Virus record (IMG/VR): IMGVR_UViG_3300023176_003360
Length of the DNA stretch: 20,000 nucleotides
Source: an uncultured virus (IMG/VR IMGVR_UViG_3300023176_003360)
Lineage: Duplodnaviria; Heunggongvirae; Uroviricota; Caudoviricetes
Reading direction: 5' to 3' (one strand)
Part shown: positions 4,339 through 15,371 of the stretch, in pieces
How positions within the stretch are numbered: position 1 is the stretch's first letter
Layout of the letters: every line of letters begins with the position of its first letter
Program-made: the position numbers and the translations under genes
The notes under the pieces: model-generated
Seen by the model: only the letters and a program-made list of their open reading frames with translations
Told to the model about the DNA's origin: nothing
The model's database searches: none

Positions 4339-5649
4339 CTAATCGTCTTGGATGACTGTTAATGAACAGCCTGCGGCAACGTAACACGTACCGCTTGTGG
4401 TGCTACCATCGCTCATCGAATGTGGTAGACTGTATTCTTTGTCTGTAGTGCCTTTTTGATTTAAATTAAAATCCCAAGCACCCCCTCCGTTTTCTAACTC
4501 TATAGTTGCGTCATGACTGCCACTACCCTCTTGTACGATTGTAGCATTATGACCGTCACCTATTAGGTCAAGTTGTAGATAGTGCTGTCCACTATCTTTT
4601 TGTATTACATCAACCGTGTTTGAATTACCATCAACACCTATAAATGCTGTTTTGCTTCCACTGCCTGTTTGTAGTAAATCCAGTGTGTTTGAATTACCGT
4701 CAATCACCACATCGCCAAAATGTGTTCCAACACCTGCTGTATCATTTTGATCAATATCAACTGTGTTGCTGTTTCCTACAATAGTAAGTTCTAAGTAATG
4801 TTCAGCATCGTGTTGGTCAATATCTATTACGTTACTGTTACCTGTAACATTGACATGTGCTTCCATACCGTGTGCGGCTGTATCGCTTAGTTTACTAGAA
4901 CGCTTTGTGCTTTGTGCGCCTGTTATACCTGATGAATACACAGGTGTTACACTTGAACTACTAGATGTATACAGGCCTTCTTCTTCTGCCACCGTTGTGA
5001 GGAACACGGTCATATTAGAAGTGTTTTGTATATTGGTTTGAAACTGATCATATCCCATAGCAACTATTATGCTACCACCGTTGGAGCCATAGTCCCATTT
5101 GTACCAAGTGTGCCAACTACTGCCTGAGGAGTTGGATGCCATTGCTGTTCCGCCCGTGGCGTTAAACACTTGCCCTGCTCCTGGTAATACTTCTTGAGAT
5201 GCTGTGGCGTAATCTCCCACTGACATACTATAGTAACACAGATCAGTGCTACAGGTGCCGGTGTGGTAGGACATGGTTCCCACGTTCATCTTGCTTTCAA
5301 TCAGTGTCTCGATGTTGCTCTGTCTGTTGGAGGCTCCTTGTGGTGCGGCTATGATTAGTTTGCCACCACCACTAACATATGAGTCATACACTGAACGACA
5401 GGTGCTACCACAGTTGGAGTTGCCTGCTATGTCAATCACCAGTTCCTTGCCTGACACATCACTTGAACTCACTGTTGTCGAGGTGCTACCCGTAACTGTG
5501 AAACCTAATCCTTCATAATGCGACTTTAGACGACTGTATTCAGCACCAGTGTCTGTTGAGTTATAGTAGATGAATAGATCATTGGCCCACACAGGTGTAG
5601 CAAATAGCAAGAACAATACGCTACTGATTTTGAATAATGTTGATCTCAA
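4339..5649 (-). CDS. Secreted fusion: N-terminal alpha/beta domain plus C-terminal curlin-like repeats
   Basis: Signal peptide (…PVWA-N). Repeats GNSNVIDIDQ, GNSNTVDIDQ, GNSNTLDLLQ, GNSNTVDVIQ. Start is probably TTG 5649 or GTG 5652 behind GGAGG, not ATG 5664. Confidence 0.8.
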   Translation of the reverse strand: MRSTLFKISSVLFLLFATPVWANDLFIYYNSTDTGAEYSRLKSHYEGLGFTVTGSTSTTVSSSDVSGKELVIDIAGNSNCGSTCRSVYDSYVSGGGKLIIAAPQGASNRQSNIETLIESKMNVGTMSYHTGTCSTDLCYYSMSVGDYATASQEVLPGAGQVFNATGGTAMASNSSGSSWHTWYKWDYGSNGGSIIVAMGYDQFQTNIQNTSNMTVFLTTVAEEEGLYTSSSSSVTPVYSSGITGAQSTKRSSKLSDTAAHGMEAHVNVTGNSNVIDIDQHDAEHYLELTIVGNSNTVDIDQNDTAGVGTHFGDVVIDGNSNTLDLLQTGSGSKTAFIGVDGNSNTVDVIQKDSGQHYLQLDLIGDGHNATIVQEGSGSHDATIELENGGGAWDFNLNQKGTTDKEYSLPHSMSDGSTTSGTCYVAAGCSLTVIQDD

Positions 5650-6736
5650 CACTTGATCCTCCATTAATTATTATTTCAGCAGGTACGTTGTCCTGTGTTA
5701 TGTTTAGATTCACATTGCCGTCACGCTCTGTATTAATATCTGCTATGTGTGGAACACGTTCCGAACGAACAAAGACGCCTTGTTCGTTGTAGTAACTTTG
5801 ATTTTTAATCCAAGGATACTTGTTGATTGTAGGAAGTACACCATCAAATTCTTCCATAGCATCACCAAGATCACCTTTGGTTAAGTCTAGCAAGTTATCT
5901 AAGAAATCACCACCATATTGATCTCTATCTAGTTCATTTTTTTCTAATTCGTCATTTGCTAACAGGTCTTTCATTAGTTCGTCAAATTCTAACAAGTCTA
6001 TATCTAAAAAACTTGATGTAGTTTGTTCTTCGTCACTGGTTTGAAATCCTTTTGGAAACTGATAAGGTGGACTAATAATAAGCAGATTGCTCAGTGTTGG
6101 CTTGTCAGTAAGTATTTTTGGTTTTGAAGGACGAGCAAAGGCGCTGGATACGACAGTACTTTCGTAAGGGCGATTCATAATAACGTATCCAGCACCAGTG
6201 CTGACCATGATTTCACCTACGGGGCAATTATTTTCGTCGTCTTTGTTTTCTATAAGACCAAAGTCGGGGCATGAAGGGAGGAGCGTAACCATACTTTGTC
6301 CTATTTCATTTACAACCATTGCGAAGTCAGTACCACGTACTGACACGGTTGCTGTAGGTGTTCTAAGACGAACGTTTTCGGGGTTATTTTTAGCGACACC
6401 ACCACTCGCATAACGCACAGTTCCCATCGCAACAGTCATAGCCAATTTACCCGTTTGAGCATTTGGGTTATAAGCAAATTCGTCGATGATAAACTGTGAT
6501 CCTTCTATCACTGCTACCTTTGTGTTGTCTTCAAAGGTTAGTGCTAGTTTTGTGTTTTTAGTTTCAATAGCATCATTCATTTCAAGGCCCACACCCTTTT
6601 TGGCCGTAAGGGTATCCTTGTCCCGATACAATGAGGCGTCAGGACCTTGTTGCTCTGTGATAGAGCCAATCTCTGCAAAAGCAGAGGTTATGAACAGTAG
6701 ACTACAGACCGTCGCCCTGAGTAATGTTGATCTCAT
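5621..6736 (-). CDS. Periplasmic FecR-domain protein
   Basis: Signal peptide (SAFA-E); FecR-like motifs DAIETK…LTFEDNTKV and RTPTATVSVRGTDF; acidic linker; beta-strand tail. Confidence 0.85.
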   Translation of the reverse strand: MRSTLLRATVCSLLFITSAFAEIGSITEQQGPDASLYRDKDTLTAKKGVGLEMNDAIETKNTKLALTFEDNTKVAVIEGSQFIIDEFAYNPNAQTGKLAMTVAMGTVRYASGGVAKNNPENVRLRTPTATVSVRGTDFAMVVNEIGQSMVTLLPSCPDFGLIENKDDENNCPVGEIMVSTGAGYVIMNRPYESTVVSSAFARPSKPKILTDKPTLSNLLIISPPYQFPKGFQTSDEEQTTSSFLDIDLLEFDELMKDLLANDELEKNELDRDQYGGDFLDNLLDLTKGDLGDAMEEFDGVLPTINKYPWIKNQSYYNEQGVFVRSERVPHIADINTERDGNVNLNITQDNVPAEIIINGGSSVEINIIQNQ

Positions 6737-7385
6737 TGCCTGTACCGTCTATTGTTAGGTCCACTACTCCTGATTCCGTTGTACTATCTTGTGTTATGTT
6801 AACTATGTTGCTGTCACTGCCTGCTGTGGTTCCACCGATGCTTACTTTAACTTCTGTAGTTCCATCAGTACCTGTGATACCGCTTCTGCCAATAGCAATT
6901 TTGTTACTGTCAGATGAGTTAGCAATGTCAATGTCTACGCCAATGTAGTCCTGACTCATATCAGTTCCACACACAGCATCTGTTACACTGCTTGCCGCTG
7001 TTGTTACTGTTCCACAAACATCTACTTTGTTACTAGAACCAACCACGTTTACATCAATTGCTGGGTCACTAACTGAACCTAAATCAATATTAAGTTCGTT
7101 GCTAGAACCATCTTGTACAACATCAATGTCTGGTGCTGTTGTTGATGATCCTGTTTCGATGTCAACGGTGTTGCTTGATCCGTCTTGTGAAATGTCGATA
7201 TCGGCGCTAGATCCGTTAATGGTTGTTCTTTCACTTGAACTACCTACACGGTTTCCATCACCTTGTTGTGTTATGTCAATAGTCGAAGATGAACCTGCTT
7301 GATCAAGATATACATCAGCCGCTTTAGCCGTTGTTACTCCTATCATTAATGTTATCATCGCTATCCAAGTTATCTTGTTTAGCAT
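6702..7385 (-). CDS. Curlin-like (CsgA/CsgB-type) repeat protein
   Basis: Start moved to ATG 7385 behind AAGGAGCGAG. Signal peptide ends AKA. QxGxxNxxxIxQ-type repeats: QAGSSSTIDITQQGDGN, QDGSSNTVDI, QDGSSNELNI. Confidence 0.8.
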   Translation of the reverse strand: MLNKITWIAMITLMIGVTTAKAADVYLDQAGSSSTIDITQQGDGNRVGSSSERTTINGSSADIDISQDGSSNTVDIETGSSTTAPDIDVVQDGSSNELNIDLGSVSDPAIDVNVVGSSNKVDVCGTVTTAASSVTDAVCGTDMSQDYIGVDIDIANSSDSNKIAIGRSGITGTDGTTEVKVSIGGTTAGSDSNIVNITQDSTTESGVVDLTIDGTGNEINITQGDGL

Positions 7386-8292
7386 TTTCTCGCTCCTTTT
7401 GATCTGCCCCTTGCACGACAGACGTTTGTTTAAATTCGAAAGGCTCACTCAATTTCCAGTAACCCTTTCGTTCCCCCTCTTTGATCACTTCTACTACCGC
7501 TTGATCAATTGCCGCCCTCACAGCATAACCAACCGGTTCATTAATAGTGTGACCTGCTTCTATTTCTGCCGCCTGTGTACCCATATCAAAGAATCTAAAG
7601 AACGTAAAACTATTACCTGTGCTTAGTATTGTTTTGGTAGTGCTTACTGTTATTATTACTTCTCCTGTGGTAACTGCGACAACTCGCATACTAACTGTCA
7701 CAACATCTTGTCTATATTGTGTACTAGGACCAATACCTAGGTATCTTGCTCCGGCCCCGCCTGTTAGTATATTGCTATCATAGCCTGTGATGCCTCCCTC
7801 CACTATCATACCTGCCTGCATCAATGGCGGTAGTGGTTTATCCTTACACTGTATCGTATCAGGATTAATGCCCTTCTCTTGGGCTAGTTTTGCTTTTTCT
7901 TTTTCACAAGCATCTTCAGCAAACTGCTGTCTTGCTTGTCTTATAATCTGTCTTTCTTTAGTAAGACTGTCGAGGTTTACACGTTCAACAACTGTGAACC
8001 ACTCGCCTTTTCCTACATCTTGTAGTGCGTTTATCACCCAAGCATCTGCGCCTTGTGTAACTGCGTAACTGATATTACTGAACTTTTCACCTGGTTTACG
8101 CTGTCCTGTTAGATCCTTAAAACTGTAAACAGCAACCACAACTTTTCCACGTTCTGGTTTTGGAACAGCATCAAAGTCGCTTACCATGCTGGGCTCAATT
8201 GCTTTAGGCAGTTCAGGTTTATGTACAGGTTGCATGGTAGCACACCCTGTAACCAAGGCAAGTGTTAATAATAAAGTTGCTATAAGTTTCAT
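7324..8292 (-). CDS. csgG: Curli secretion channel lipoprotein CsgG (CsgG/HfaB family)
   Basis: Lipobox LVTGC; motifs VAVYSFKDLTGQRK, AVTQGA, WFTVVER…LTKERQIIR, EGGITGYDSN, GGAGARYLGIG, YRQDVVTVSMR, NEPV. Confidence 0.95.
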   Translation of the reverse strand: MKLIATLLLTLALVTGCATMQPVHKPELPKAIEPSMVSDFDAVPKPERGKVVVAVYSFKDLTGQRKPGEKFSNISYAVTQGADAWVINALQDVGKGEWFTVVERVNLDSLTKERQIIRQARQQFAEDACEKEKAKLAQEKGINPDTIQCKDKPLPPLMQAGMIVEGGITGYDSNILTGGAGARYLGIGPSTQYRQDVVTVSMRVVAVTTGEVIITVSTTKTILSTGNSFTFFRFFDMGTQAAEIEAGHTINEPVGYAVRAAIDQAVVEVIKEGERKGYWKLSEPFEFKQTSVVQGADQKERENAKQDNLDSDDNINDRSNNG

Positions 8293-8754
8293 TTAAAAAG
8301 CAAAGTCCCCAACAGGTGTTTCAAACTCACTTGCTAGATTTCCATTACTGTCGTAGATCTCAACATAGATTACACCATTCTCTCTTTTCCATTTGATAGT
8401 ATCACCAAATGGTGTTTCACTTTCTGCCCATTGACCGTCTACTATATCGCCGCCTTCGCCAAACAGGCTATCAGCAATATTCTTAGATAATTGAGCATAA
8501 ATTCTTGATTCTAGGTTGTTTTTGAACTTGTACATATTGGTGCTCTTTTCTTCACGCTCTGCTTTGTCAATTGCGGCTTGAGCATCCTCTTTGTTTTTGT
8601 CTTTTCTTTGTTGTTCAAGTTGATGTATTGTAAGAACGTGTGTGCTATATCCTTGTCCACTGAAACTCGGGCTCTTAAAATCGTGTGTCAATTCGCCAGA
8701 GAAAGCGGTTGTAGCAAACATCATGGTTACAATAATTGTGCTAATTTTATACAT
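8293..8754 (-). CDS. csgF: Curli assembly component CsgF
   Basis: Signal peptide, then ELTHDFKSPSFSG (CsgF N-terminal FxxPxFxG) and FKNNLESRIYAQLS; directly upstream of csgG. Confidence 0.85.
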   Translation of the reverse strand: MYKISTIIVTMMFATTAFSGELTHDFKSPSFSGQGYSTHVLTIHQLEQQRKDKNKEDAQAAIDKAEREEKSTNMYKFKNNLESRIYAQLSKNIADSLFGEGGDIVDGQWAESETPFGDTIKWKRENGVIYVEIYDSNGNLASEFETPVGDFAF

Positions 8755-8839: not shown

Positions 8840-9229
8840 TTAAATTGGAGTATTATGAACTTGTAGTTCTTCTAAACCGTGTTCACGATCGATATATTTG
8901 GTATCAACCTTGATAGGTTTGTACTGCTGTAACCATGCTAACACTATTTGTGGATCAAAAGGTCCACAGGTATAAACGTCAAGTTGAATTATAGCAGGAT
9001 CGCATTCGTCCCACGTGTGCATTACAATGTGTGAAGTTTCTATGATTGCGGCAACTGTTAGTCCTCTGTTACCGGGCATGGTCACATACTTTGCATATGG
9101 ACCCATAAGCAGTTTCATGCCTATGCGATCTATCAGATCTTTAACGTGTTCGCTTGCTAGTTTTTCTACTGTGGGCGGATTTAGCACTTCCGCTCTAATA
9201 ATAACATGTTTGTGCACCAACGGCTCCAT
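8840..9229 (-). CDS. Pyruvoyl-dependent S-adenosylmethionine decarboxylase family proenzyme (SpeD/SpeH-like)
   Basis: GLTVAAIIETSHIVMHTWDE…LDVYTCG matches the family SH/HTW/DxxTCG motifs. ATG 9229 preferred over TTG 9235. Confidence 0.88.
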   Translation of the reverse strand: MEPLVHKHVIIRAEVLNPPTVEKLASEHVKDLIDRIGMKLLMGPYAKYVTMPGNRGLTVAAIIETSHIVMHTWDECDPAIIQLDVYTCGPFDPQIVLAWLQQYKPIKVDTKYIDREHGLEELQVHNTPI

Positions 9230-9272
9230 TAACAAGTACCAGATCTATTTATGATCAAGGTCATAAAATAGA

Positions 9273-9356
9273 TGGTGCTCTAGGAGAGATTCGAACTCTC
9301 ACGCCTTGCGGCACTGGTTCCTAAGACCAGCGTGTCTACCGTTCCACCACCAGAGC
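9273..9356 (-). tRNA. tRNA-Leu(UAG)
   Basis: Cloverleaf with CTGGT-CT-TAG-GA-ACCAG, long variable arm, GTTCGAATC and encoded CCA. Confidence 0.96.
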
Positions 9357-9357
9357 A

Positions 9358-9433
9358 TGGTAGTCCGTAGGGGAATCGAACCCCTCTTTCCGCCGTGAAA
9401 GGGCGGTGTCCTAAACCGATAGACGAACGGACC
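9358..9433 (-). tRNA. tRNA-Glu(UUC)
   Basis: CCGCC-CT-TTC-AC-GGCGG anticodon arm, GGTTCGATTCC, encoded CCA. Confidence 0.96.
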
Positions 9434-9540
9434 ATAATCTAGTGCTTTAGAACTTGACAGGTAAACCATGAATCGCTGTTCTACAGTTTTAGCACTAGAA
9501 TAATAGTTAACAGTACACTCTTTCGAGCATACTGTCAACC

Positions 9541-10062
9541 TTATTTTATCCTCAACTCCTCTATGTTTATAGGAGTAAAGTTAATTTGTTCCACACAAAC
9601 ACACCTGTGATTTGGTGTAGGACTAGGGTTAGTGTGTATGTGTCCATGCACGTTAACCATTTTGGTGTCCTTGAACCTACCTTCACCCAATGTGCTGTTG
9701 TGTACAGGAACGTGTGTTAAAAGCAATCCAAACTCTGGAAACATTCTCCACACGTCAATTTTAGCAACCAACTCGTGTTTAGCAAAGAACTTGGCATCAT
9801 CGTGGTTGCCCAATATCAAACGCTTTTGACCGTTAAGTCTTTTCCAAAGCGTCTTGAATGTGTCCTTGTTGCCAAAGAACACGTCACCCAAGTGATACAC
9901 TTTGTCGCCAGGTTTCACAACACTGTTCCAGTTGTCCACCATGGTTTCATCCATGTGTTCTACACTGTCAAACGCACGAACAGGCTTGCCATCACTATCC
10001 TTAAAGGTCAAGATATTGCTGTGCTGAAAGTGCGTGTCGCTTATTACCCATATGTTTCTCAT
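9541..10062 (-). CDS. Calcineurin-like metallophosphoesterase
   Basis: Motifs SDTH, HLGD, GNHD, LTH and HGHIH; SD GAGGTG. Confidence 0.93.
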   Translation of the reverse strand: MRNIWVISDTHFQHSNILTFKDSDGKPVRAFDSVEHMDETMVDNWNSVVKPGDKVYHLGDVFFGNKDTFKTLWKRLNGQKRLILGNHDDAKFFAKHELVAKIDVWRMFPEFGLLLTHVPVHNSTLGEGRFKDTKMVNVHGHIHTNPSPTPNHRCVCVEQINFTPINIEELRIK

Positions 10063-10080
10063 GTATCACCTCTTATAAAT

Positions 10081-10154
10081 TGGAGTGGACGACAGGAATC
10101 GAACCTGTATGGATGGATTTGCAATCCACTGCGTAACCATTCCGCCACGCCCAC
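10081..10154 (-). tRNA. tRNA-Cys(GCA)
   Basis: GTGGA-TT-GCA-AA-TCCAT, U73 discriminator, encoded CCA. Confidence 0.95.
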
Positions 10155-10247
10155 AAAGTGGAGACCTTTCTCGAGGGCGCCTCCTATTCCCGCCTGATCT
10201 TATATGTAGGGGCTCAGGCCTAACCACGTTTATACTCGTACCCTATT

Positions 10248-10321
10248 TGGCACCGGAACAAGGAATCGAACCTCAGTTTGCGGTTTTGGAGACCGTCGTG
10301 TTACCACTACACCATTCCGGC
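10248..10321 (-). tRNA. tRNA-Trp(CCA)
   Basis: ACGGT-CT-CCA-AA-ACCGC, G73, encoded CCA. Confidence 0.94.
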
Positions 10322-10323
10322 TT

Positions 10324-10363
10324 AAAAACAAAAAACCCCCGTAAGCATTTCTACTTCGGGGGT
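10324..10363 (-). terminator. Attenuator terminator immediately upstream of tRNA-Trp
   Basis: ACCCCCGAAGTAGAAATGCTTACGGGGGT followed by TTTTTGTTTTT on the minus strand. Confidence 0.9.
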
Positions 10364-10388
10364 CTAAATCTTGTTGTTGAAACAATTC

Positions 10389-10457
10389 CTACAAGATACC
10401 CCCTGGTGGTTCATAGCACCAAATACAAATGTCATTATGTAGAGTCTGTGTATTCAT
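10389..10457 (-). CDS. Putative attenuator leader peptide MNTQTLHNDICIWCYEPPGGIL (22 aa)
   Basis: SD AAGGA, ATG 10457 to TAG 10389, codons TGT-ATT-TGG-TGC. The 3' end overlaps the 5' arm of an antiterminator. Confidence 0.8.
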   Translation of the reverse strand: MNTQTLHNDICIWCYEPPGGIL

Positions 10458-10480
10458 TGTTTCGCTTTCCTTATTAACTA

Positions 10481-10514
10481 TATTTATAATACTATCTGTT
10501 TGTGGTCTTGTCAA
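10481..10514 (-). promoter_or_regulatory. Overlapping sigma70-like and T4-late-like promoters for the leader/tRNA unit
   Basis: TTGACA (10514-10509)-17 nt-TATTAT (10491-10486), overlapping TATAAATA (10488-10481). Confidence 0.75.
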
Positions 10515-10827
10515 CCAGAAAAGACTTAATTTTTTCAAAATTTTTCGCAGTCTGTTCTTTACCTGACTGCCAGTTTGTTTTTTGAAACTGTTTAATGTCT
10601 TCCCATTCGTTTGTTGCCCAGTTACCTATTGCTTGAGGTCTTTCGTTTAACCAAGTCCCAAACGAATTTAGTTTTGTTTGTAACTGTATGCTTACAGGTT
10701 TCTTTTCTGGTAACACTGTATTTGTTTCATTAGCCACAGCATTATTATTCAATACAATACCTATTAGTACACCTATCACTAGAATAGTAATAATATATAC
10801 TGCTTTTTTCATTTGCTTTTTTATCAT
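10492..10827 (-). CDS. Hypothetical membrane-anchored/secreted protein
   Basis: Start moved to ATG 10827 (SD AAGGAAAGG) because the longer ORF overlaps tRNA-Arg. Hydrophobic N-terminal helix. Confidence 0.75.
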   Translation of the reverse strand: MIKKQMKKAVYIITILVIGVLIGIVLNNNAVANETNTVLPEKKPVSIQLQTKLNSFGTWLNERPQAIGNWATNEWEDIKQFQKTNWQSGKEQTAKNFEKIKSFLVDKTTNR

Positions 10828-10848
10828 GCCTTTCCTTTTGTTATAATT

Positions 10849-10925
10849 TGGCCTGCCTGGGAGGACTCGAACCACCGACCTTCAGTTCCGCAAACTGACG
10901 TTCTATCCAACTGAACTACAGGCAG
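10849..10925 (-). tRNA. tRNA-Arg(GCG)
   Basis: TCAGT-TT-GCG-GA-ACTGA, A20 in the D-loop, G73, encoded CCA. Confidence 0.93.
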
Positions 10926-10933
10926 ATAGTTAT

Positions 10934-10962
10934 AATATATATGGTTTTACCAGAATTGTCAA
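10934..10962 (-). promoter_or_regulatory. Sigma70-like promoter for tRNA-Arg
   Basis: TTGACA-17 nt-TATATT ending 8 nt upstream of the tRNA. Confidence 0.7.
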
Positions 10963-10980
10963 TTGGAATATTTTACCAAT

Positions 10981-11145
10981 TTAGAAGTCGCACTTTACAT
11001 TTGCTTTTGGAGTAACCTGATCTCTAATTGGTTTCTCTGTAGAGATTCCGTCCACTTCAGCACCCGGCTCTACTTCACAATTTCGTATTTTAAATGTGCA
11101 AGATTGTAAAGCCAAAATGGCTAATATGATTAAAACGTGTCGCAT
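10981..11145 (-). CDS. Small lipoprotein, 54 aa (absent from the ORF track)
   Basis: MRHVLIILAILALQSCTFKIRNCEVEPGAEVDGISTEKPIRDQVTPKANVKCDF with lipobox LQSC; preceded by TATAAATA-N5-ATG. Confidence 0.78.
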   Translation of the reverse strand: MRHVLIILAILALQSCTFKIRNCEVEPGAEVDGISTEKPIRDQVTPKANVKCDF

Positions 11146-11167
11146 GGTTTTATTTATAGATTGAAAC

Positions 11168-11740
11168 TTATCTAATAAGTCTGTATATATCTTTTGTGCT
11201 GGTCTTAATCCAATCCGGATTTTGTTTTGGATTAAAATAAAAATTGTGTTTTCCTAGAACACAATCTCGTTTGGTAAGAACACTGTAATTAAATTTTTGG
11301 TGTCCTAGTGTGTCATAACCCAGTGGTCTGTTTTTACAGCAATCTTCCCAAGTTTGTCCAAATATAAAAATGTTGTCAATCTTGGCAAAATCAACAACCC
11401 TGTTTACTTCAAAAGGATAGCACATCGCATATTGTTGTTTACTGCTTTTCCAGGACAATATGCTTTTGTGTGTATGCCTATTTTCTTTATTGTTTTGTTG
11501 TTTGTGCTTTAGTACACTAAAATATTCCGCACCAAGCACACCTTTAGAATTGGTGTACCAATGATTGTCTAAATCATATTCAGATACAGGGCAATCATAA
11601 TTGGCAAGAAAAACATCAGTAATTAAACTGTTACTTTCAATATATTTTATTATATTATTGTAGCATCTACGATATGGATTTCCTGGTATCCAACTAAATG
11701 CTGTTTTCCATGGATCAATTATGATCGCAATAGATTTCAT
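11168..11740 (-). CDS. Hypothetical protein, possibly isochorismatase/cysteine-hydrolase-like fold
   Basis: 190-aa ORF. IAIIIDPW and IFIFGQTWEDCC loosely resemble the Asp and Cys motifs of that fold; the function call is weak. Confidence 0.6.
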   Translation of the reverse strand: MKSIAIIIDPWKTAFSWIPGNPYRRCYNNIIKYIESNSLITDVFLANYDCPVSEYDLDNHWYTNSKGVLGAEYFSVLKHKQQNNKENRHTHKSILSWKSSKQQYAMCYPFEVNRVVDFAKIDNIFIFGQTWEDCCKNRPLGYDTLGHQKFNYSVLTKRDCVLGKHNFYFNPKQNPDWIKTSTKDIYRLIR

Positions 11741-11953
11741 TTAAAAATATTTGTTTAAAACTTCAAGTTGATCGTGATATTCAGCAATAATTTTTAATTC
11801 TTTTTCAATTGCTTCTAGGATATCTGGATGTTCGCCAACACCTGCGGCATTTGCTAGATACACTTCAACGTTCATTGCGTGTTTAGCAATATGTCCTTTA
11901 GCGTGTTCTTTTATCGCTTCGATCATGTTTTCTCTGTTATATGGTCCAGCCAT
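11741..11953 (-). CDS. Hypothetical small helical phage protein
   Basis: 70-aa ORF with SD AAAGG; helical hairpin pattern around GVGEHPDI. Confidence 0.8.
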   Translation of the reverse strand: MAGPYNRENMIEAIKEHAKGHIAKHAMNVEVYLANAAGVGEHPDILEAIEKELKIIAEYHDQLEVLNKYF

Positions 11954-11971
11954 TGTTTTACCTTTCTAAAT

Positions 11972-12045
11972 TGGTGCCCAGTGACAGAATCGAACTGCCA
12001 ATTGATGATTACAAATCAACTGTTATACCGTTTAACTAACCGGGC
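11972..12045 (-). tRNA. tRNA-Thr(UGU)
   Basis: GTTGA-TT-TGT-AA-TCATC (one U.U mismatch), GTTCGATTC, encoded CCA. Confidence 0.93.
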
Positions 12046-12057
12046 AACGTTAGTTCT

Positions 12058-12086
12058 ATAATACTTATTATTAATTAAAAAGTCAA
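12058..12086 (-). promoter_or_regulatory. Sigma70-like promoter for tRNA-Thr
   Basis: TTGACT-17 nt-TATTAT. Confidence 0.7.
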
Positions 12087-12090
12087 CCTT

Positions 12091-13248
12091 TTATTTGGAA
12101 GTAGGGTTTACTTGGAAAAATGTATCAGTTCCTTGTGTAGGAATAATTGATGGCAACGATTTTTTAATAGCGCCACTTTGTAATAATTTAATCATTCCGT
12201 CGCCTGAACTTGCTGTTATCATAGATCTAGCACCAACTACTATGCTAGAAGCAACTTGCCATGCTCCGCCCATATCATGATGTTCTTTGTACCAATCAAA
12301 ATTGGCTTTTATGTAAGCACTTAATACTTTGTCTGGATTTTGGTTTGGAGTTTTAAAAACTTCTGTTATTGTATCACCATAATTTTGGAAACGCTGTTGG
12401 AAGATTGCTTTTCCTAATGCTTCACGTTCGTTTGATGATAAGCCTAAGTGGTTTACTACTCTCACAAAATCAATTACGTTAATACTTTTTTGTGGCTTAT
12501 CAGGAGTACGCAATTTGCTTGCTTTATAACCTTCCATGTCTTGCAATCCGCCACTTTGATAATCACTTATTGCTTGTGATATTGTTGGAAACTTCTGTAA
12601 AACATCTAAAACATCTCTAGTGCTTACACCACCTTCGCCTAGTCTTCCTGAACCAGTTGATCCTTTAGTTCCTCCGATATTTTCAGAGTGAGCAACTTTT
12701 AATTCAACTGGAACGCCTTTACTAGTACCGTCTGGATTAGTACCAGTTGATACAAACAAATCGCCTGTTCCTTGTTGTGTAATATTTTGACTTAAGATAG
12801 CAAACGCATGTTCACCTTTACCTGCTCTTTTTTGCCCCAAGCCAAATTTGATAAATTCCATAAACATTTGTTCATTGACAGGATCACCATAGAATAGGTC
12901 ATCAAAACTATAATGTCCATCTTTTAAAAAACATTGATGGTTAACGCATTTATTTTTTTCGAAATTATCTAAGAATTTATTTTTTTGTTGAATATTTAGA
13001 CTAGAAGCACCAGCCATTTTTTCTGCTATTAGTTGTATAGTTTTTTCGCTGTATTCTTGTTTTAACTTTTCTTCAATTTTAGGAAAAATTCTATCTACAA
13101 CATTAGTTTTATGAAGCAATGTGTAAACACGATCAAGCAAAGCAACTTGTTCTTCGTCAGAAGGATCTAAATCATTAACACGATCAAGTATTTCTTTTTT
13201 TGCTTGATCTGGATCAGTATATTCTCTTAAAAATTCTAATGCTCTCAT
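12091..13248 (-). CDS. Hypothetical protein with PD-(D/E)xK nuclease-like motifs
   Basis: 385-aa ORF with spaced GKGE…GDL…VELK motif; TATAAATA-N5-ATG upstream. Confidence 0.65.
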   Translation of the reverse strand: MRALEFLREYTDPDQAKKEILDRVNDLDPSDEEQVALLDRVYTLLHKTNVVDRIFPKIEEKLKQEYSEKTIQLIAEKMAGASSLNIQQKNKFLDNFEKNKCVNHQCFLKDGHYSFDDLFYGDPVNEQMFMEFIKFGLGQKRAGKGEHAFAILSQNITQQGTGDLFVSTGTNPDGTSKGVPVELKVAHSENIGGTKGSTGSGRLGEGGVSTRDVLDVLQKFPTISQAISDYQSGGLQDMEGYKASKLRTPDKPQKSINVIDFVRVVNHLGLSSNEREALGKAIFQQRFQNYGDTITEVFKTPNQNPDKVLSAYIKANFDWYKEHHDMGGAWQVASSIVVGARSMITASSGDGMIKLLQSGAIKKSLPSIIPTQGTDTFFQVNPTSK

Positions 13249-13256
13249 ATCAATAT

Positions 13257-13964
13257 TTATACCGTTTTTGGAAATAGCATATCAGTACAAAAACGCTCTA
13301 CATCCGCTTCATTAAGTCCTAATGACTTCATTACCTTGGGTGTATGTGGGTTTTGTTGCTGATTATGACAGTACCAATTCTGCCCTTCTAGCACTGCATT
13401 GCGTTCACCTTTATTGTTGTGATCACCAATACATTCTAGGTAAACTTTTAGATTGGTTGTTGCTAGTTGTACAATGGTTTTGGCTTCTTCAATGTCTGTT
13501 ACATTACCTGCCGCGATCATGCTACCACTGAATATGTTCAATGCCCATTCAGGCAATTCACGTTTTTTGCTAGGAACATACTCACTTACAGTATCTTCAA
13601 ACCATTCTACCATATTGTGATGTACACCATCGCCGTTGGGCCCACCTAGTGGACTATAGTCATGAAAGGCGCCGGTCATTTTGTTCTTACCTGCAATTAC
13701 ATCAAATCCGTATATTGGTCCGTTGTTGTGTAACTGTGGAAAGACACATACGTGCATCATCCAAAGACCTTTTGTAGTACGGGCATCCACCACATCAATG
13801 TGAGCCCTTCGTACACTATCATTAGACCAAACACGATTAATCCAACCGTTATCGGGTTGGTTAAAATAGTCAAGGCCTTCTTCTTGAGTTTCTGTAGCAT
13901 ATTCATCAAACATATCAAGAATGTCGTTTTGACATTCTATTAGTTTATCCCAAATTTCACTCAC
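13257..13964 (-). CDS. pcyX: Ferredoxin-dependent bilin reductase, most likely PcyX type
   Basis: FDBR motifs RRAHIDV, MHVCVFP…PIYGFDVI, FHDYSP, RELPEWA-IFS and QQQNPHT; overlaps the end of the heme oxygenase gene. Confidence 0.85.
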   Translation of the reverse strand: MSEIWDKLIECQNDILDMFDEYATETQEEGLDYFNQPDNGWINRVWSNDSVRRAHIDVVDARTTKGLWMMHVCVFPQLHNNGPIYGFDVIAGKNKMTGAFHDYSPLGGPNGDGVHHNMVEWFEDTVSEYVPSKKRELPEWALNIFSGSMIAAGNVTDIEEAKTIVQLATTNLKVYLECIGDHNNKGERNAVLEGQNWYCHNQQQNPHTPKVMKSLGLNEADVERFCTDMLFPKTV

Positions 13965-14499
13965 CGCTTAATTCCTTAAACAGTTCTGTTGCAAATTCAA
14001 AACATTTAATGGCTTCATCGACAAAAAGGTCTTCTTTGCCATCCAGTCTGCTTCTTACTTCTGCAATTAAGTCTTTTTCTTTTCCATTGAATTGGTAGTA
14101 TGCACCACTACCTGGTACACGCCTAGCAATCATTTGTCCGCCATGTAAGTCTCCAAAATGTCTTACATAAATGTGTGCAAGTAATTGTTCTGGCTTGTTT
14201 TCATATAATTCTTTGCACCAGTCACTATATCGAACTGCCGATTCTTTAATTTTAAATCCACCAAAACCTAATTCATCTAGATCTTGTTTAATTGCTTCTG
14301 CACGACATATATCTTCAATGCCATCTAGTATTCCTGCTTTTTGTGAAAAGCGTTCCAGTGCTTCATAGATGAAATACTGATTAGCAAGGTATTCCGCATA
14401 ACCTTCTTCGGTTAGTTCACCTTTAAGAAGTTTGCGGGCAAAGTCTTGCCTTTCAGCATTTTTGTGAAATTCCCATGTTAATTCTTTGAGCGTTGCCAT
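13957..14499 (-). CDS. hemO: Heme oxygenase
   Basis: LKELTWEFHKNAE (proximal His), AHIYVRHFGDLHGGQMI, EAIKCFEF. Confidence 0.93.
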   Translation of the reverse strand: MATLKELTWEFHKNAERQDFARKLLKGELTEEGYAEYLANQYFIYEALERFSQKAGILDGIEDICRAEAIKQDLDELGFGGFKIKESAVRYSDWCKELYENKPEQLLAHIYVRHFGDLHGGQMIARRVPGSGAYYQFNGKEKDLIAEVRSRLDGKEDLFVDEAIKCFEFATELFKELSGE

Positions 14500-14521: not shown

Positions 14522-14827
14522 TTACGCAGGATCTATTTTGACTTGTAATGGATAACCGTTTTCTCTTGCAAGAACACTAGTCTCTACGCCTTTTTGTTCT
14601 GCAATTTCGTAAGGATAAATTCCTGCCACACCACTGCCGTTATTGTGTATCTGTTGCATTATGGAATTAGCACGTTCGGAATTGTGTTTGAATAGTTCAA
14701 CCAAAATTTGAACAACAAAGTTCATTGGAGTAATGTCGTCGTTAAAAAAGACAACCTTGTACATTCCAGGTTCTTTTAGTGTATACGTCTGCTTTTCTTT
14801 GGTAATTGTATCCGCTTGTGTTGTCAT
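14522..14827 (-). CDS. clpS: N-degron adaptor ClpS
   Basis: YKVVFFNDDITPMNFVV…IHNNGSGVAGIYPYEIAEQK…YPL. Confidence 0.95.
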   Translation of the reverse strand: MTTQADTITKEKQTYTLKEPGMYKVVFFNDDITPMNFVVQILVELFKHNSERANSIMQQIHNNGSGVAGIYPYEIAEQKGVETSVLARENGYPLQVKIDPA

Positions 14828-14892
14828 TTAGTTGTTACCCCTTAACATATTTATTTTAATACTATACACTATAATATGAGTATTTGCAAGTA

Positions 14893-14916
14893 GGGAGAGC
14901 ACCAAAGTACCCTCCC
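14893..14916 (-). terminator. Hairpin after hsp20 (possible terminator, weak U-tract)
   Basis: GGGAGGGTAC-TTTG-GTGCTCTCCC. Confidence 0.55.
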
Positions 14917-14930
14917 ATTTTGCTACGTGA

Positions 14931-15371
14931 TTACTTCGCTTCTAGAACTTCAATCTTGCGAGGTTTTAATGCCTCTGGGATTTGTTTTTCAAGCGATACA
15001 GTAAGGATACCGTTTTTCATTTCAGCACCTTTTACTTCCACGTGATCCGCAAGTTTGAACACTCTCTTAAATGCTCTGCCGGCAATGCCTTTGTGCATAT
15101 AGTTGCGAGTGTCGCCTTCGTCCTTGCCTTCTGTGTTACCAGAAATAACAAGATCTCCTTGGTCGATTTGGATATCAACATCTTTACGATCAAATCCAGC
15201 AAGTGCTAGTTCAATAGCATAGTTGCTTTCATCAGTCTTGATGATGTTGTATGGTGGATAAGATGTGCCGTTTACTGTGTTAGTAAAGAAGCGGTTTTCT
15301 AACTCATCAAATAATGAGTCAAATCCTACTGTTGCACGATGAAATGGGGTTAGATCAAATGTATTAGTCAT
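14931..15371 (-). CDS. Small heat-shock protein (Hsp20/IbpA family)
   Basis: VGFDSLF, SYPPYNI, YAIELALAGF, YMHKGIAGRAFKRVFKL, NGILTVSL, PRKIEV. Confidence 0.96.
   Translation of the reverse strand: MTNTFDLTPFHRATVGFDSLFDELENRFFTNTVNGTSYPPYNIIKTDESNYAIELALAGFDRKDVDIQIDQGDLVISGNTEGKDEGDTRNYMHKGIAGRAFKRVFKLADHVEVKGAEMKNGILTVSLEKQIPEALKPRKIEVLEAK

Follow-up and report, generated by a model that had tools for sequence, protein, structure and literature searches.

A putative leader-peptide transcription attenuator preceding tRNA-Trp-led tRNA gene blocks in uncultured large phages

Phage tRNA genes are commonly viewed as constitutive codon-usage helpers or as spares against host tRNA loss. In a stretch of 20,000 nucleotides (nt) from an uncultured virus (IMG/VR record IMGVR_UViG_3300023176_003360; Caudoviricetes), here termed the window, a tRNA-Trp and a tRNA-Cys gene are preceded by a promoter, a short leader open reading frame (ORF) that contains Trp and Cys codons, and an intrinsic terminator that overlaps a predicted, competing antiterminator. 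This module is real, is conserved in relatives of the window and is specific to phage tRNA gene blocks that begin with tRNA-Trp. The element is probably a ribosome-mediated leader-peptide transcription attenuator that, judged from sequence, has the phage's own tRNA genes as its output. With somewhat less assurance, we also hold it likely that the leader serves as a programmable 'codon test strip', in which codons are rewritten as tRNAs are gained, lost or swapped, the tRNA operon being transcribed when those tRNAs decode slowly. The evidence that carries both statements is the recurrence of the module before Trp-led blocks, the agreement between leader codons and downstream tRNAs, and the covariation and predicted folding of the leader RNA.

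The leader locus in the window

All elements of the locus are on the minus strand. A sigma-70-type promoter (10514-10486), with a -35 element TTGACA at 10514-10509, a 17-nt spacer and a -10 element TATTAT at 10491-10486, matches 11 of the 12 consensus positions and overlaps the stop codon of an upstream membrane-protein ORF; GGTTGACA-type promoters are present at the equivalent place in relatives. A preliminary description of this DNA had proposed a dual promoter here, but only a single clear promoter is found, and promoter-like sites are not enriched in the region from 9000 to 12500 (10, versus 11.3 +/- 2.9 in shuffled sequences). The promoter is followed by a Shine-Dalgarno (SD) sequence, AAGGAAAG, at 10472-10465 and by the leader ORF, MNTQTLHNDICIWCYEPPGGIL, which spans 10457-10389 and has 22 codons between the ATG at 10457 and a TAG stop codon at 10391-10389. 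The control codons, Cys-Ile-Trp-Cys, are codons 11 to 14 (10427-10416; TGT at 10427-10425, ATT at 10424-10422, TGG at 10421-10419 and TGC at 10418-10416). Of these, TGG is decoded by tRNA-Trp(CCA), while tRNA-Cys(GCA) reads TGT as well as TGC.

Two competing folds are predicted at and beyond the end of the ORF. The antiterminator has a 5′-arm, GGGGGUAUCUUGU (10403-10391), made up of the last four sense codons and the first base of the stop codon, and a 3′-arm, ACAAGAU..ACCCCC (10374-10358), that pairs through the segments 10374-10368 and 10363-10358. The GGGGG of the 5′-arm begins at 10403, 15 nt past the TGG codon. The terminator hairpin, ACCCCCGAAGUA-GAAA-UGCUU-A-CGGGGGU (10363-10335), has a GC-rich stem that is kept in relatives and, because this stem is bulged, was missed by a simple terminator scan; the U-tract TTTTTTGTTTT (10334-10324) follows. 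As ACCCCC is common to the 3′-arm of the antiterminator and the 5′-arm of the terminator, the two folds are mutually exclusive in silico. Folded alone, the terminator has a predicted energy of -18.0 kcal/mol (z -4.47; 0 of 200 shuffled sequences as good) and the antiterminator one of -17.4 kcal/mol (z -3.35; 1 of 200 as good).

The minimum free energy (MFE) structure contains two further helices. A small UGGUG/CACCA hairpin had been noted previously. A long-range helix, H12, which was absent from the preliminary description, pairs GAAACAAU (10463-10456), a segment that takes in the first two bases of the AUG start codon, with AUUGUUUC (10386-10379), located 3 to 10 nt past the stop codon. This start:stop helix closes the 5′-domain in the MFE structure, and its duplex energy in the window is -13.8 kcal/mol (z -2.9).

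Both ARAGORN and Rfam recognize tRNA-Trp(CCA) at 10321-10248 and tRNA-Cys(GCA) at 10154-10081. With only 2 nt between the U-tract and tRNA-Trp, this gene cannot have a promoter of its own. The 93-nt spacer between the two tRNA genes (10247-10155) had no match in an Rfam search and is an insertion, as the tRNA-Trp and tRNA-Cys genes are 4-5 nt apart in two relatives (L178 and L179). Directly behind tRNA-Cys is a metallophosphoesterase gene (10062-9541; PF00149, PF12850; phrog_547, E 9e-50), so the genes downstream of the putative attenuator are tRNA-Trp, tRNA-Cys and a phosphoesterase, not biosynthesis or synthetase genes. Besides this promoter, the best matches in the region are two near-consensus sequences at 10934-10962 and 12058-12086, also on the minus strand, which directly precede tRNA-Arg(GCG) and tRNA-Thr(UGU) and end ~9-13 nt before the tRNA. 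Neither is followed by a leader or a terminator, and the leader is thus a peculiarity of the Trp block. Apart from the dual promoter, this part of the preliminary description stands: sequence reading confirms the SD sequence and the position of the 22-codon ORF with its Cys-Ile-Trp-Cys codons, the arms that it gave for antiterminator and terminator are correct, and the 15-nt distance from the Trp codon and the 2-nt step from U-tract to tRNA-Trp are as it stated.

Conservation of the module

Relatives were collected with two anchors. The neighbouring phosphoesterase gave 128 confirmed relatives, of which 80 were kept, and a leader motif gave 83 stretches. The combined set comprises 165 records with 117 tRNA-Trp genes and 61 distinct 230-nt upstream regions; in two of these tRNA-Trp is not the first gene of the block, leaving 59 that are Trp-led. 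A promoter, an SD sequence and an ORF of 18-25 codons that begins with ATG or GTG and contains a Trp codon are present in all 59; conservation of the upstream ORF was one of the checks proposed in the preliminary description, and its outcome is favourable. The SD sequence AAGGAA and its distance to the start codon are unchanged in relatives. A G-run plus T-run terminator is apparent in 55 of 58 rows, the remaining three being two variant U-tracts and one with an N, and tRNA-Trp is the first tRNA past the terminator in these loci.

The module is specific to such blocks. Of the 59 Trp-led blocks, 52 have a terminator in the 100 nt before the first tRNA. Among 44 blocks that begin with another tRNA only two do, and both of these have leaders as well: one is a Tyr-led block with a leader of the kind described here, and the other contains a tRNA-Trp that was missed by ARAGORN. 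Seven Trp-led blocks have no terminator flagged under this crude 100-nt test. In L161 (227-320) an insert of ~95 nt, with a long closing stem ACTACACTAC...GTAGTGTAGT, is located between the U-tract and tRNA-Trp, and inserts are found at the same place in L102, L104, L106, L121, L143, L149 and L164; a second type, also of ~95 nt, is found in L052 and L130 and in L064 and L140. These inserts had no Rfam match. They may place the terminator more than 100 nt away in the unflagged blocks. As it recurs in ~65 distinct relatives, the arrangement is far beyond chance.

Closer relatives of the window leader were also obtained. With the window's terminator as query, four leaders were found among nine viral-contig matches. 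A search with a motif from the end of the ORF gave 17 metagenome loci, five of which are identical to the window across the leader; this motif fixes the codons E-P-P-G-G-I/V-L, and their conservation in this set is thus by construction. All loci of the window lineage have a tRNA-Arg upstream and, where the locus extends so far, tRNA-Trp and then tRNA-Cys downstream. Among window-type relatives the N-terminal half of the peptide differs freely: the 14 distinct window-type leaders that precede Trp-Cys blocks have about five peptide forms. Those of the window lineage before such blocks keep one Trp and two Cys codons, in the order CIWC, CKWC or WCGC.

A degenerate, back-translated pattern of the window control region had no match in viral contigs, and the upstream membrane protein, used as an anchor, gave one weak match only. 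The leader DNA had no relative in 50,697 records of named phages, in which the tRNAs alone matched, and the phosphoesterase is at most 62% identical to those of isolates, so no cultured carrier is apparent. Related sequences are found in IMG/VR viral contigs, the longest of 275 kb, and in one metagenome contig of 266 kb. Given these long related contigs and the phage auxiliary genes described below, the window derives from an uncultured large (giant) marine phage. The window stretch was found in 20 sequencing runs, mostly of salt-marsh metagenomes, six of which are RNA libraries.

Leader codons and downstream tRNA genes

The preliminary description had proposed to test whether control codons follow the identity of the downstream tRNAs, and across 52 distinct pairs of leader and tRNA block they do. 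For 115 of the 117 non-Trp tRNAs, the leader has a codon for the same amino acid, the two misses being Arg in L007 and Ala in L102. When blocks were shuffled among all leaders the mean was 95.1 (sd 3.0, p<5e-5), when they were shuffled only within the five leader types it was 107.2 (sd 2.0, p=1.5e-4), and a score limited to the eight residues around Trp was 144 versus 118.6 +/- 4.6 (p=5e-5), p-values that overstate independence in view of the kinship among the sequences. When wobble pairing is applied strictly, the leader offers a readable codon to 161 of 170 tRNAs. The tRNAs located upstream of a leader are matched less often (61/83).

Individual amino acids differ in how much they contribute. 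Cys is present in all 30 leaders with tRNA-Cys in the block versus 15 of 22 without, Gln in 9/9 versus 21/43 and Tyr in 6/6 versus 16/46; Pro is present in 25/25 leaders that have tRNA-Pro in the block. Agreement extends in part to the codon used. A tRNA-Ile(UAU) is present in six blocks, and all six leaders have two or three ATA codons. The ten leaders with at least two ATA codons include these six, three that precede a CAU tRNA and one that precedes neither; none of the 43 leaders with fewer than two ATA codons precedes tRNA-Ile(UAU). tRNA-Ile(GAU) occurs in two blocks, and both leaders use ATT. TCA or TCG is present in 12 of the 13 leaders of blocks with tRNA-Ser(UGA), and the 83 Pro codons in leaders are CCA (58), CCG (16) or CCT (9), never CCC.

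Pairs of near-identical leaders are, in sequence terms, natural swap experiments. The leader with ..IIGWPS.. precedes Trp-Pro-Gly-Ser-Met-Ile (L086) and that with ..IICWPS.. precedes Trp-Pro-Cys-Ser-Ile (L158); ..QCWCPS.. precedes Trp-Pro-Ser-Cys (L051) and ..QRWCPE.. precedes Trp-Pro-Cys-Glu-Arg (L052); ..CWCPP.. precedes Trp-Cys-Ile (L063) and ..CWCPS.. precedes Trp-Ser-Gln-Cys-Ile (L064). Longer blocks are represented by longer segments. In L005 the segment MMKHIQQYCIRWF corresponds to exactly the ten amino acids of its ten-tRNA block, and in L172, a member of the window lineage with the same terminator, MNTQKMHNMFYCIRLWSEGGLL precedes Tyr-Trp-Cys-Arg-His-Phe, all six of which are present in the leader.

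Covariation and folding of the leader RNA

In an alignment of 55 distinct leaders, four elements were scored together as one structure: the start:stop helix, a mid-ORF hairpin, the terminator and a small AU hairpin. This structure reaches 88.4% pairing, with 36-51% in slid controls. It has 71 cells with double changes, versus 25.8 in shuffles, and none of 500 shuffles reached that number. The start codon (ATG or GTG) covaries through its first base with the base four past the stop codon, the pair being AU in 37 leaders, GC in 17 and other in one. The mid-ORF hairpin takes in the first two bases of TGG and the preceding codon, and changes in that codon are compensated within the hairpin (AU 22, UA 11 and GC 4 at one pair). 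One terminator pair is CG in 31 leaders and UA in 17. For nine window-type leaders, RNAalifold returned only the terminator and a 6-pair hairpin, without covariation. Gap placement defeats column-wise counts in this window-type alignment, and per-sequence duplex energies were therefore used for the start:stop helix. By this measure 59 of 65 leaders have a start:stop duplex with z<-2; relatives of the L166 type have a 1-nt deletion on each H12 arm, the one compensating the other.

The overlap of ORF end, antiterminator and terminator is kept in three divergent types of leader, with GGGGUAUGUCUU.., GGGAGUGUGU.. and, in the window, GGGGGUAUCUUGU at the end of the ORF. The predicted antiterminator is thus backed by an architecture that is conserved across three sequence types and by its folding energies. 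To follow the choice between the two folds, transcripts of 65 leaders were cut inside the terminator loop and then folded, which replaced the equilibrium folding of whole leaders considered below. With Trp in the A site of a modelled ribosome, the G-run at the end of the ORF captures the C-run of the terminator in 64 of 65 leaders, and in all 65 when the ribosome is three codons before Trp. There is no capture (0/65) with the ribosome on the stop codon.

Proposed mechanism and its implications

We infer that the leader ORF is translated and that a stalled ribosome shifts the fold of the nascent RNA. Transcription would start at the strong promoter and a ribosome would translate the 22-codon leader right behind RNA polymerase. 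Were the Trp and Cys codons decoded fast, the ribosome would reach the stop codon, which is within the 5′-arm of the antiterminator, and cover that arm; ACCCCC would then be free, the terminator would form and transcription would stop 2 nt before tRNA-Trp. A ribosome dwelling at the control codons would instead leave GGGGGUAUCUUGU free to pair with ACAAGAU..ACCCCC, which would block the terminator, and the polymerase that reads through would transcribe tRNA-Trp, tRNA-Cys and probably genes beyond, with RNase P releasing the tRNAs. Charged tRNA would thereby come under negative feedback, for exactly those species that are encoded downstream. The start:stop helix might function as an anti-antiterminator that holds the G-run when there is no stalled ribosome, or might block re-initiation on finished leaders. 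Decoding could be slowed by a mismatch of codon usage with the current host, by decay of host tRNAs during infection or by cleavage by anticodon nucleases; as a pure conjecture, starvation or such host nucleases might be the natural trigger.

The preliminary description knew of no ribosome-mediated attenuator with cognate tRNA genes as its output, and this holds within the literature searched, in which no leader-peptide attenuator was found described before tRNA genes, subscription-only papers being outside the search. If the proposal is correct, the element would be the first instance of tRNA genes under feedback control that is driven by demand and read out by ribosomes. Attenuation logic, hitherto described for amino-acid and synthetase genes, would reach tRNA genes, a single short leader would monitor many tRNA species together, and phages would gauge the speed of decoding at particular codons and tune their tRNA supply to match. 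The question of when and why phages need tRNAs would become directly testable through the state of the attenuator. Being compact (~155 nt) and modular, the element could also act as a natural sensor of tRNA availability.

Evidence against the attenuator and alternative explanations

In addition to the kinship that inflates the permutation statistics, several observations weigh against a codon-reading attenuator. Some concern the codons. As Gly, Ser, Pro, Met and Thr are present in nearly all leaders, much of the raw recall of tRNAs is uninformative, and Arg is weak at the codon level, with 2 of 6 matched. The common leader ..ITCWPPSGGMS precedes a Trp-only block, and one such contig has no further tRNA downstream; several leaders likewise retain Cys and Pro codons before a Trp-only block, and L054 and L060 have unmatched residues beside Trp. 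Control codons are single rather than in runs, which predicts a low sensitivity. Matched codons two and three positions past Trp are so near the G-run that stalling at them should leave the arm covered, and in L172 even the Trp codon is close enough for this.

Other such observations concern the RNA. The preliminary description had looked to covariation of the stems and to folding with ribosome constraints; the former gave a mixed result. Covariation was found for the terminator, the mid-ORF hairpin and the start:stop helix and not for the antiterminator, which is 88.1% paired in the 55-leader alignment with no double changes; as the motif searches fixed its 5′-arm, this comparison had low power. 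Folded to equilibrium, leaders give the terminator in 55/55 cases unmasked, 55/55 with a ribosome at the stop codon and 54/55 with one at Trp, so that masks do not discriminate and the discrimination appears only in truncated transcripts. Since equilibrium folding prefers the terminator regardless of the ribosome mask, the switch must be kinetic. Truncated transcripts without any ribosome form the antiterminator in 57 of 65 leaders, and in this model an untranslated leader may give read-through, unlike trpL. Contigs from four RNA libraries span the leader and terminator into tRNA-Trp (for example, 10125-10667 and 9200-10415), but they provide no ends, strand or level, DNA carry-over is possible, and they are therefore neutral evidence.

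Several of these observations would fit an attenuator that senses the general status of translation, in which any slowing of the ribosome opens the terminator and the particular codons are secondary. Such slowing could result from host shut-off, a ribosome-targeting defence, a nutrient downshift or lost coupling of transcription and translation. Control codons that are single and not in tandem runs, the default of ribosome-free truncated transcripts to the antiterminator (57/65) and the leaders with Cys and Pro codons before a Trp-only block are all consistent with this. We nevertheless regard it as unlikely, as it leaves unexplained both the restriction of the module to Trp-led blocks and the co-change of codons and tRNAs, as seen within leader types (p=1.5e-4), for ATA with tRNA-Ile(UAU) and in the Gly/Cys swap between L086 and L158. 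Somewhat less probable is that the locus is an ordinary gene for a small protein with a leaky terminator, the tRNAs resulting from constitutive read-through and nothing being sensed. The promoter, SD sequence, ORF and terminator do form a complete unit, C-terminal residues are conserved, and alphaproteobacterial leader peptides can function in trans, according to a report on peTrpL (PMC7298713). The peptide is, however, poorly conserved outside the constraints of the RNA arms, with its N-terminal half free in window-type relatives, and its variable residues follow the tRNA content. The stop codon is always within an arm of the helix that competes with the terminator, and the tRNAs, with just 2 nt between the U-tract and tRNA-Trp, have no promoter of their own.

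Read-through might also be set by the nascent peptide itself, if a sequence similar to Trp-Pro-Pro stalled the ribosome intrinsically, in an EF-P- or ligand-dependent manner comparable to TnaC or WPPP. Most type-A leaders do have W-P-P, WPPP is an arrest peptide in E. coli, as described in bioRxiv 10.1101/2024.02.28.582505, and EF-P influences termination behind polyproline stretches, according to PMC5021804. But W-P-P is not universal, as WFS, WCY, WCG, WPS, WPL and WSE are also found, the Pro codons are equally explained by tracking where there is a tRNA-Pro in the block (25/25), and in 19-codon leaders the antiterminator arm would lie under a ribosome that halts at the second Pro codon; arrest of this kind is most improbable. 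Improbable to a slightly greater degree is direct, T-box-like sensing of tRNA by the leader RNA, without translation. The tRNA-related output and the structured leader would agree with it, but there is no match to the T-box or another Rfam model in the leaders of the window and eight relatives, and all leaders keep an SD sequence, a start codon and a frame that ends at a fixed structural position, with changes in length that are multiples of three. Up to ten codons, moreover, track tRNAs within one leader (L005). Ribosome-mediated attenuation by codons that match the downstream tRNAs is therefore the explanation that we prefer.

Other elements in the window and its relatives

Auxiliary genes on the minus strand of the window (13257-14499, 8840-9235 and 14522-15371) encode heme oxygenase, a ferredoxin-dependent bilin reductase, S-adenosylmethionine decarboxylase (speD), ClpS and Hsp20. 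A curli-like secretion set, also on the minus strand (4339-8754), comprises CsgG (E 1.7e-51), CsgF, two proteins with curlin repeats and a FecR-domain protein, and a CHASE2-adenylate/guanylate cyclase is located at 2-1813.

Among the relatives, L005 has a GOLLD RNA (RF02032) at 379-838 within its tRNA region (185.9 bits, gathering score 150, E 3.5e-51) that encloses a tRNA-Ser at 442-512. In L106 a manA RNA (RF01745) at 417-627 (58.0 bits, gathering score 55.2) is positioned between a TATA-rich promoter-like stretch (~400) and the SD sequence of the leader ORF, so the leader transcript of L106 would start with the manA RNA. A second small ORF with its own SD sequence is present past the terminator in L172, before tRNA-Tyr, and in L122, before tRNA-Trp; the two share the motif SEYW(K/R)WMKS.

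Comparison with known attenuators

The element has, or is predicted to have, most of the parts of the trpL class of attenuators of E. coli and Salmonella, to which hisL, pheL, thrL, leuL and ilvL also belong. In these, too, a short ORF with regulatory codons lies close to the promoter and is followed by an intrinsic terminator. Their antiterminator, of which the phage element has a predicted counterpart, uses one strand of the terminator, and their stop codon is so placed that a ribosome on it keeps the antiterminator from forming. In trpL the Trp codon is about as far from the antiterminator arm as in the window (15 nt). The start:stop helix and the mid-ORF hairpin may stand for the upstream 1:2 (pause or anti-antiterminator) structure of this class, with a geometry unlike that of trpL. 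The differences are in output, which is amino-acid biosynthesis genes in the trpL class and tRNA genes in the phage element, in the codons, which are runs for one amino acid in the former and single codons for up to ten amino acids in the phage leaders, and in the stall site, which is inside 'segment 1' in trpL and would be in the loop of the start:stop helix in the phage element. The Rfam model Trp_leader (RF00513) had no match in the window at E<=1 or at its gathering score, and on the L122 leader it scored 25.1 bits (E 0.31), below the gathering score of 41.

The trpE(G) attenuator of Sinorhizobium meliloti (rnTrpL), as described in PMC6614838, is an alphaproteobacterial, ribosome-dependent Trp attenuator and has the same three-stem logic, with SL1, an antiterminator SL2 and a terminator SL3, its terminated leader being freed as a small RNA; unlike the phage leaders, it has a run of three Trp codons, and trpE(G) is under its control. 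The peptide from this leader family, peTrpL, has the pattern N-T-x-N-I-x-x-W in common with phage leaders of type A and, with the window leader, an N-terminal NTQ; according to PMC7298713, alphaproteobacterial peTrpL peptides are not conserved in sequence. So short a likeness may reflect ancestry in a host trp attenuator or may be chance.

Two further systems couple termination to the translation apparatus. T-box riboswitches likewise use an antiterminator to make read-through of a terminator depend on how much of a specific tRNA is available, but they bind uncharged tRNA directly and need no translation; the phage element has no T-box features, and the Rfam T-box model had no match in the window or in eight relatives. 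The pheST attenuator of E. coli, with the pheM leader, controls phenylalanyl-tRNA synthetase and responds to one amino acid. It is a leader-peptide attenuator with an output in the translation apparatus, as the phage element would be, but that output is a synthetase protein rather than tRNA.

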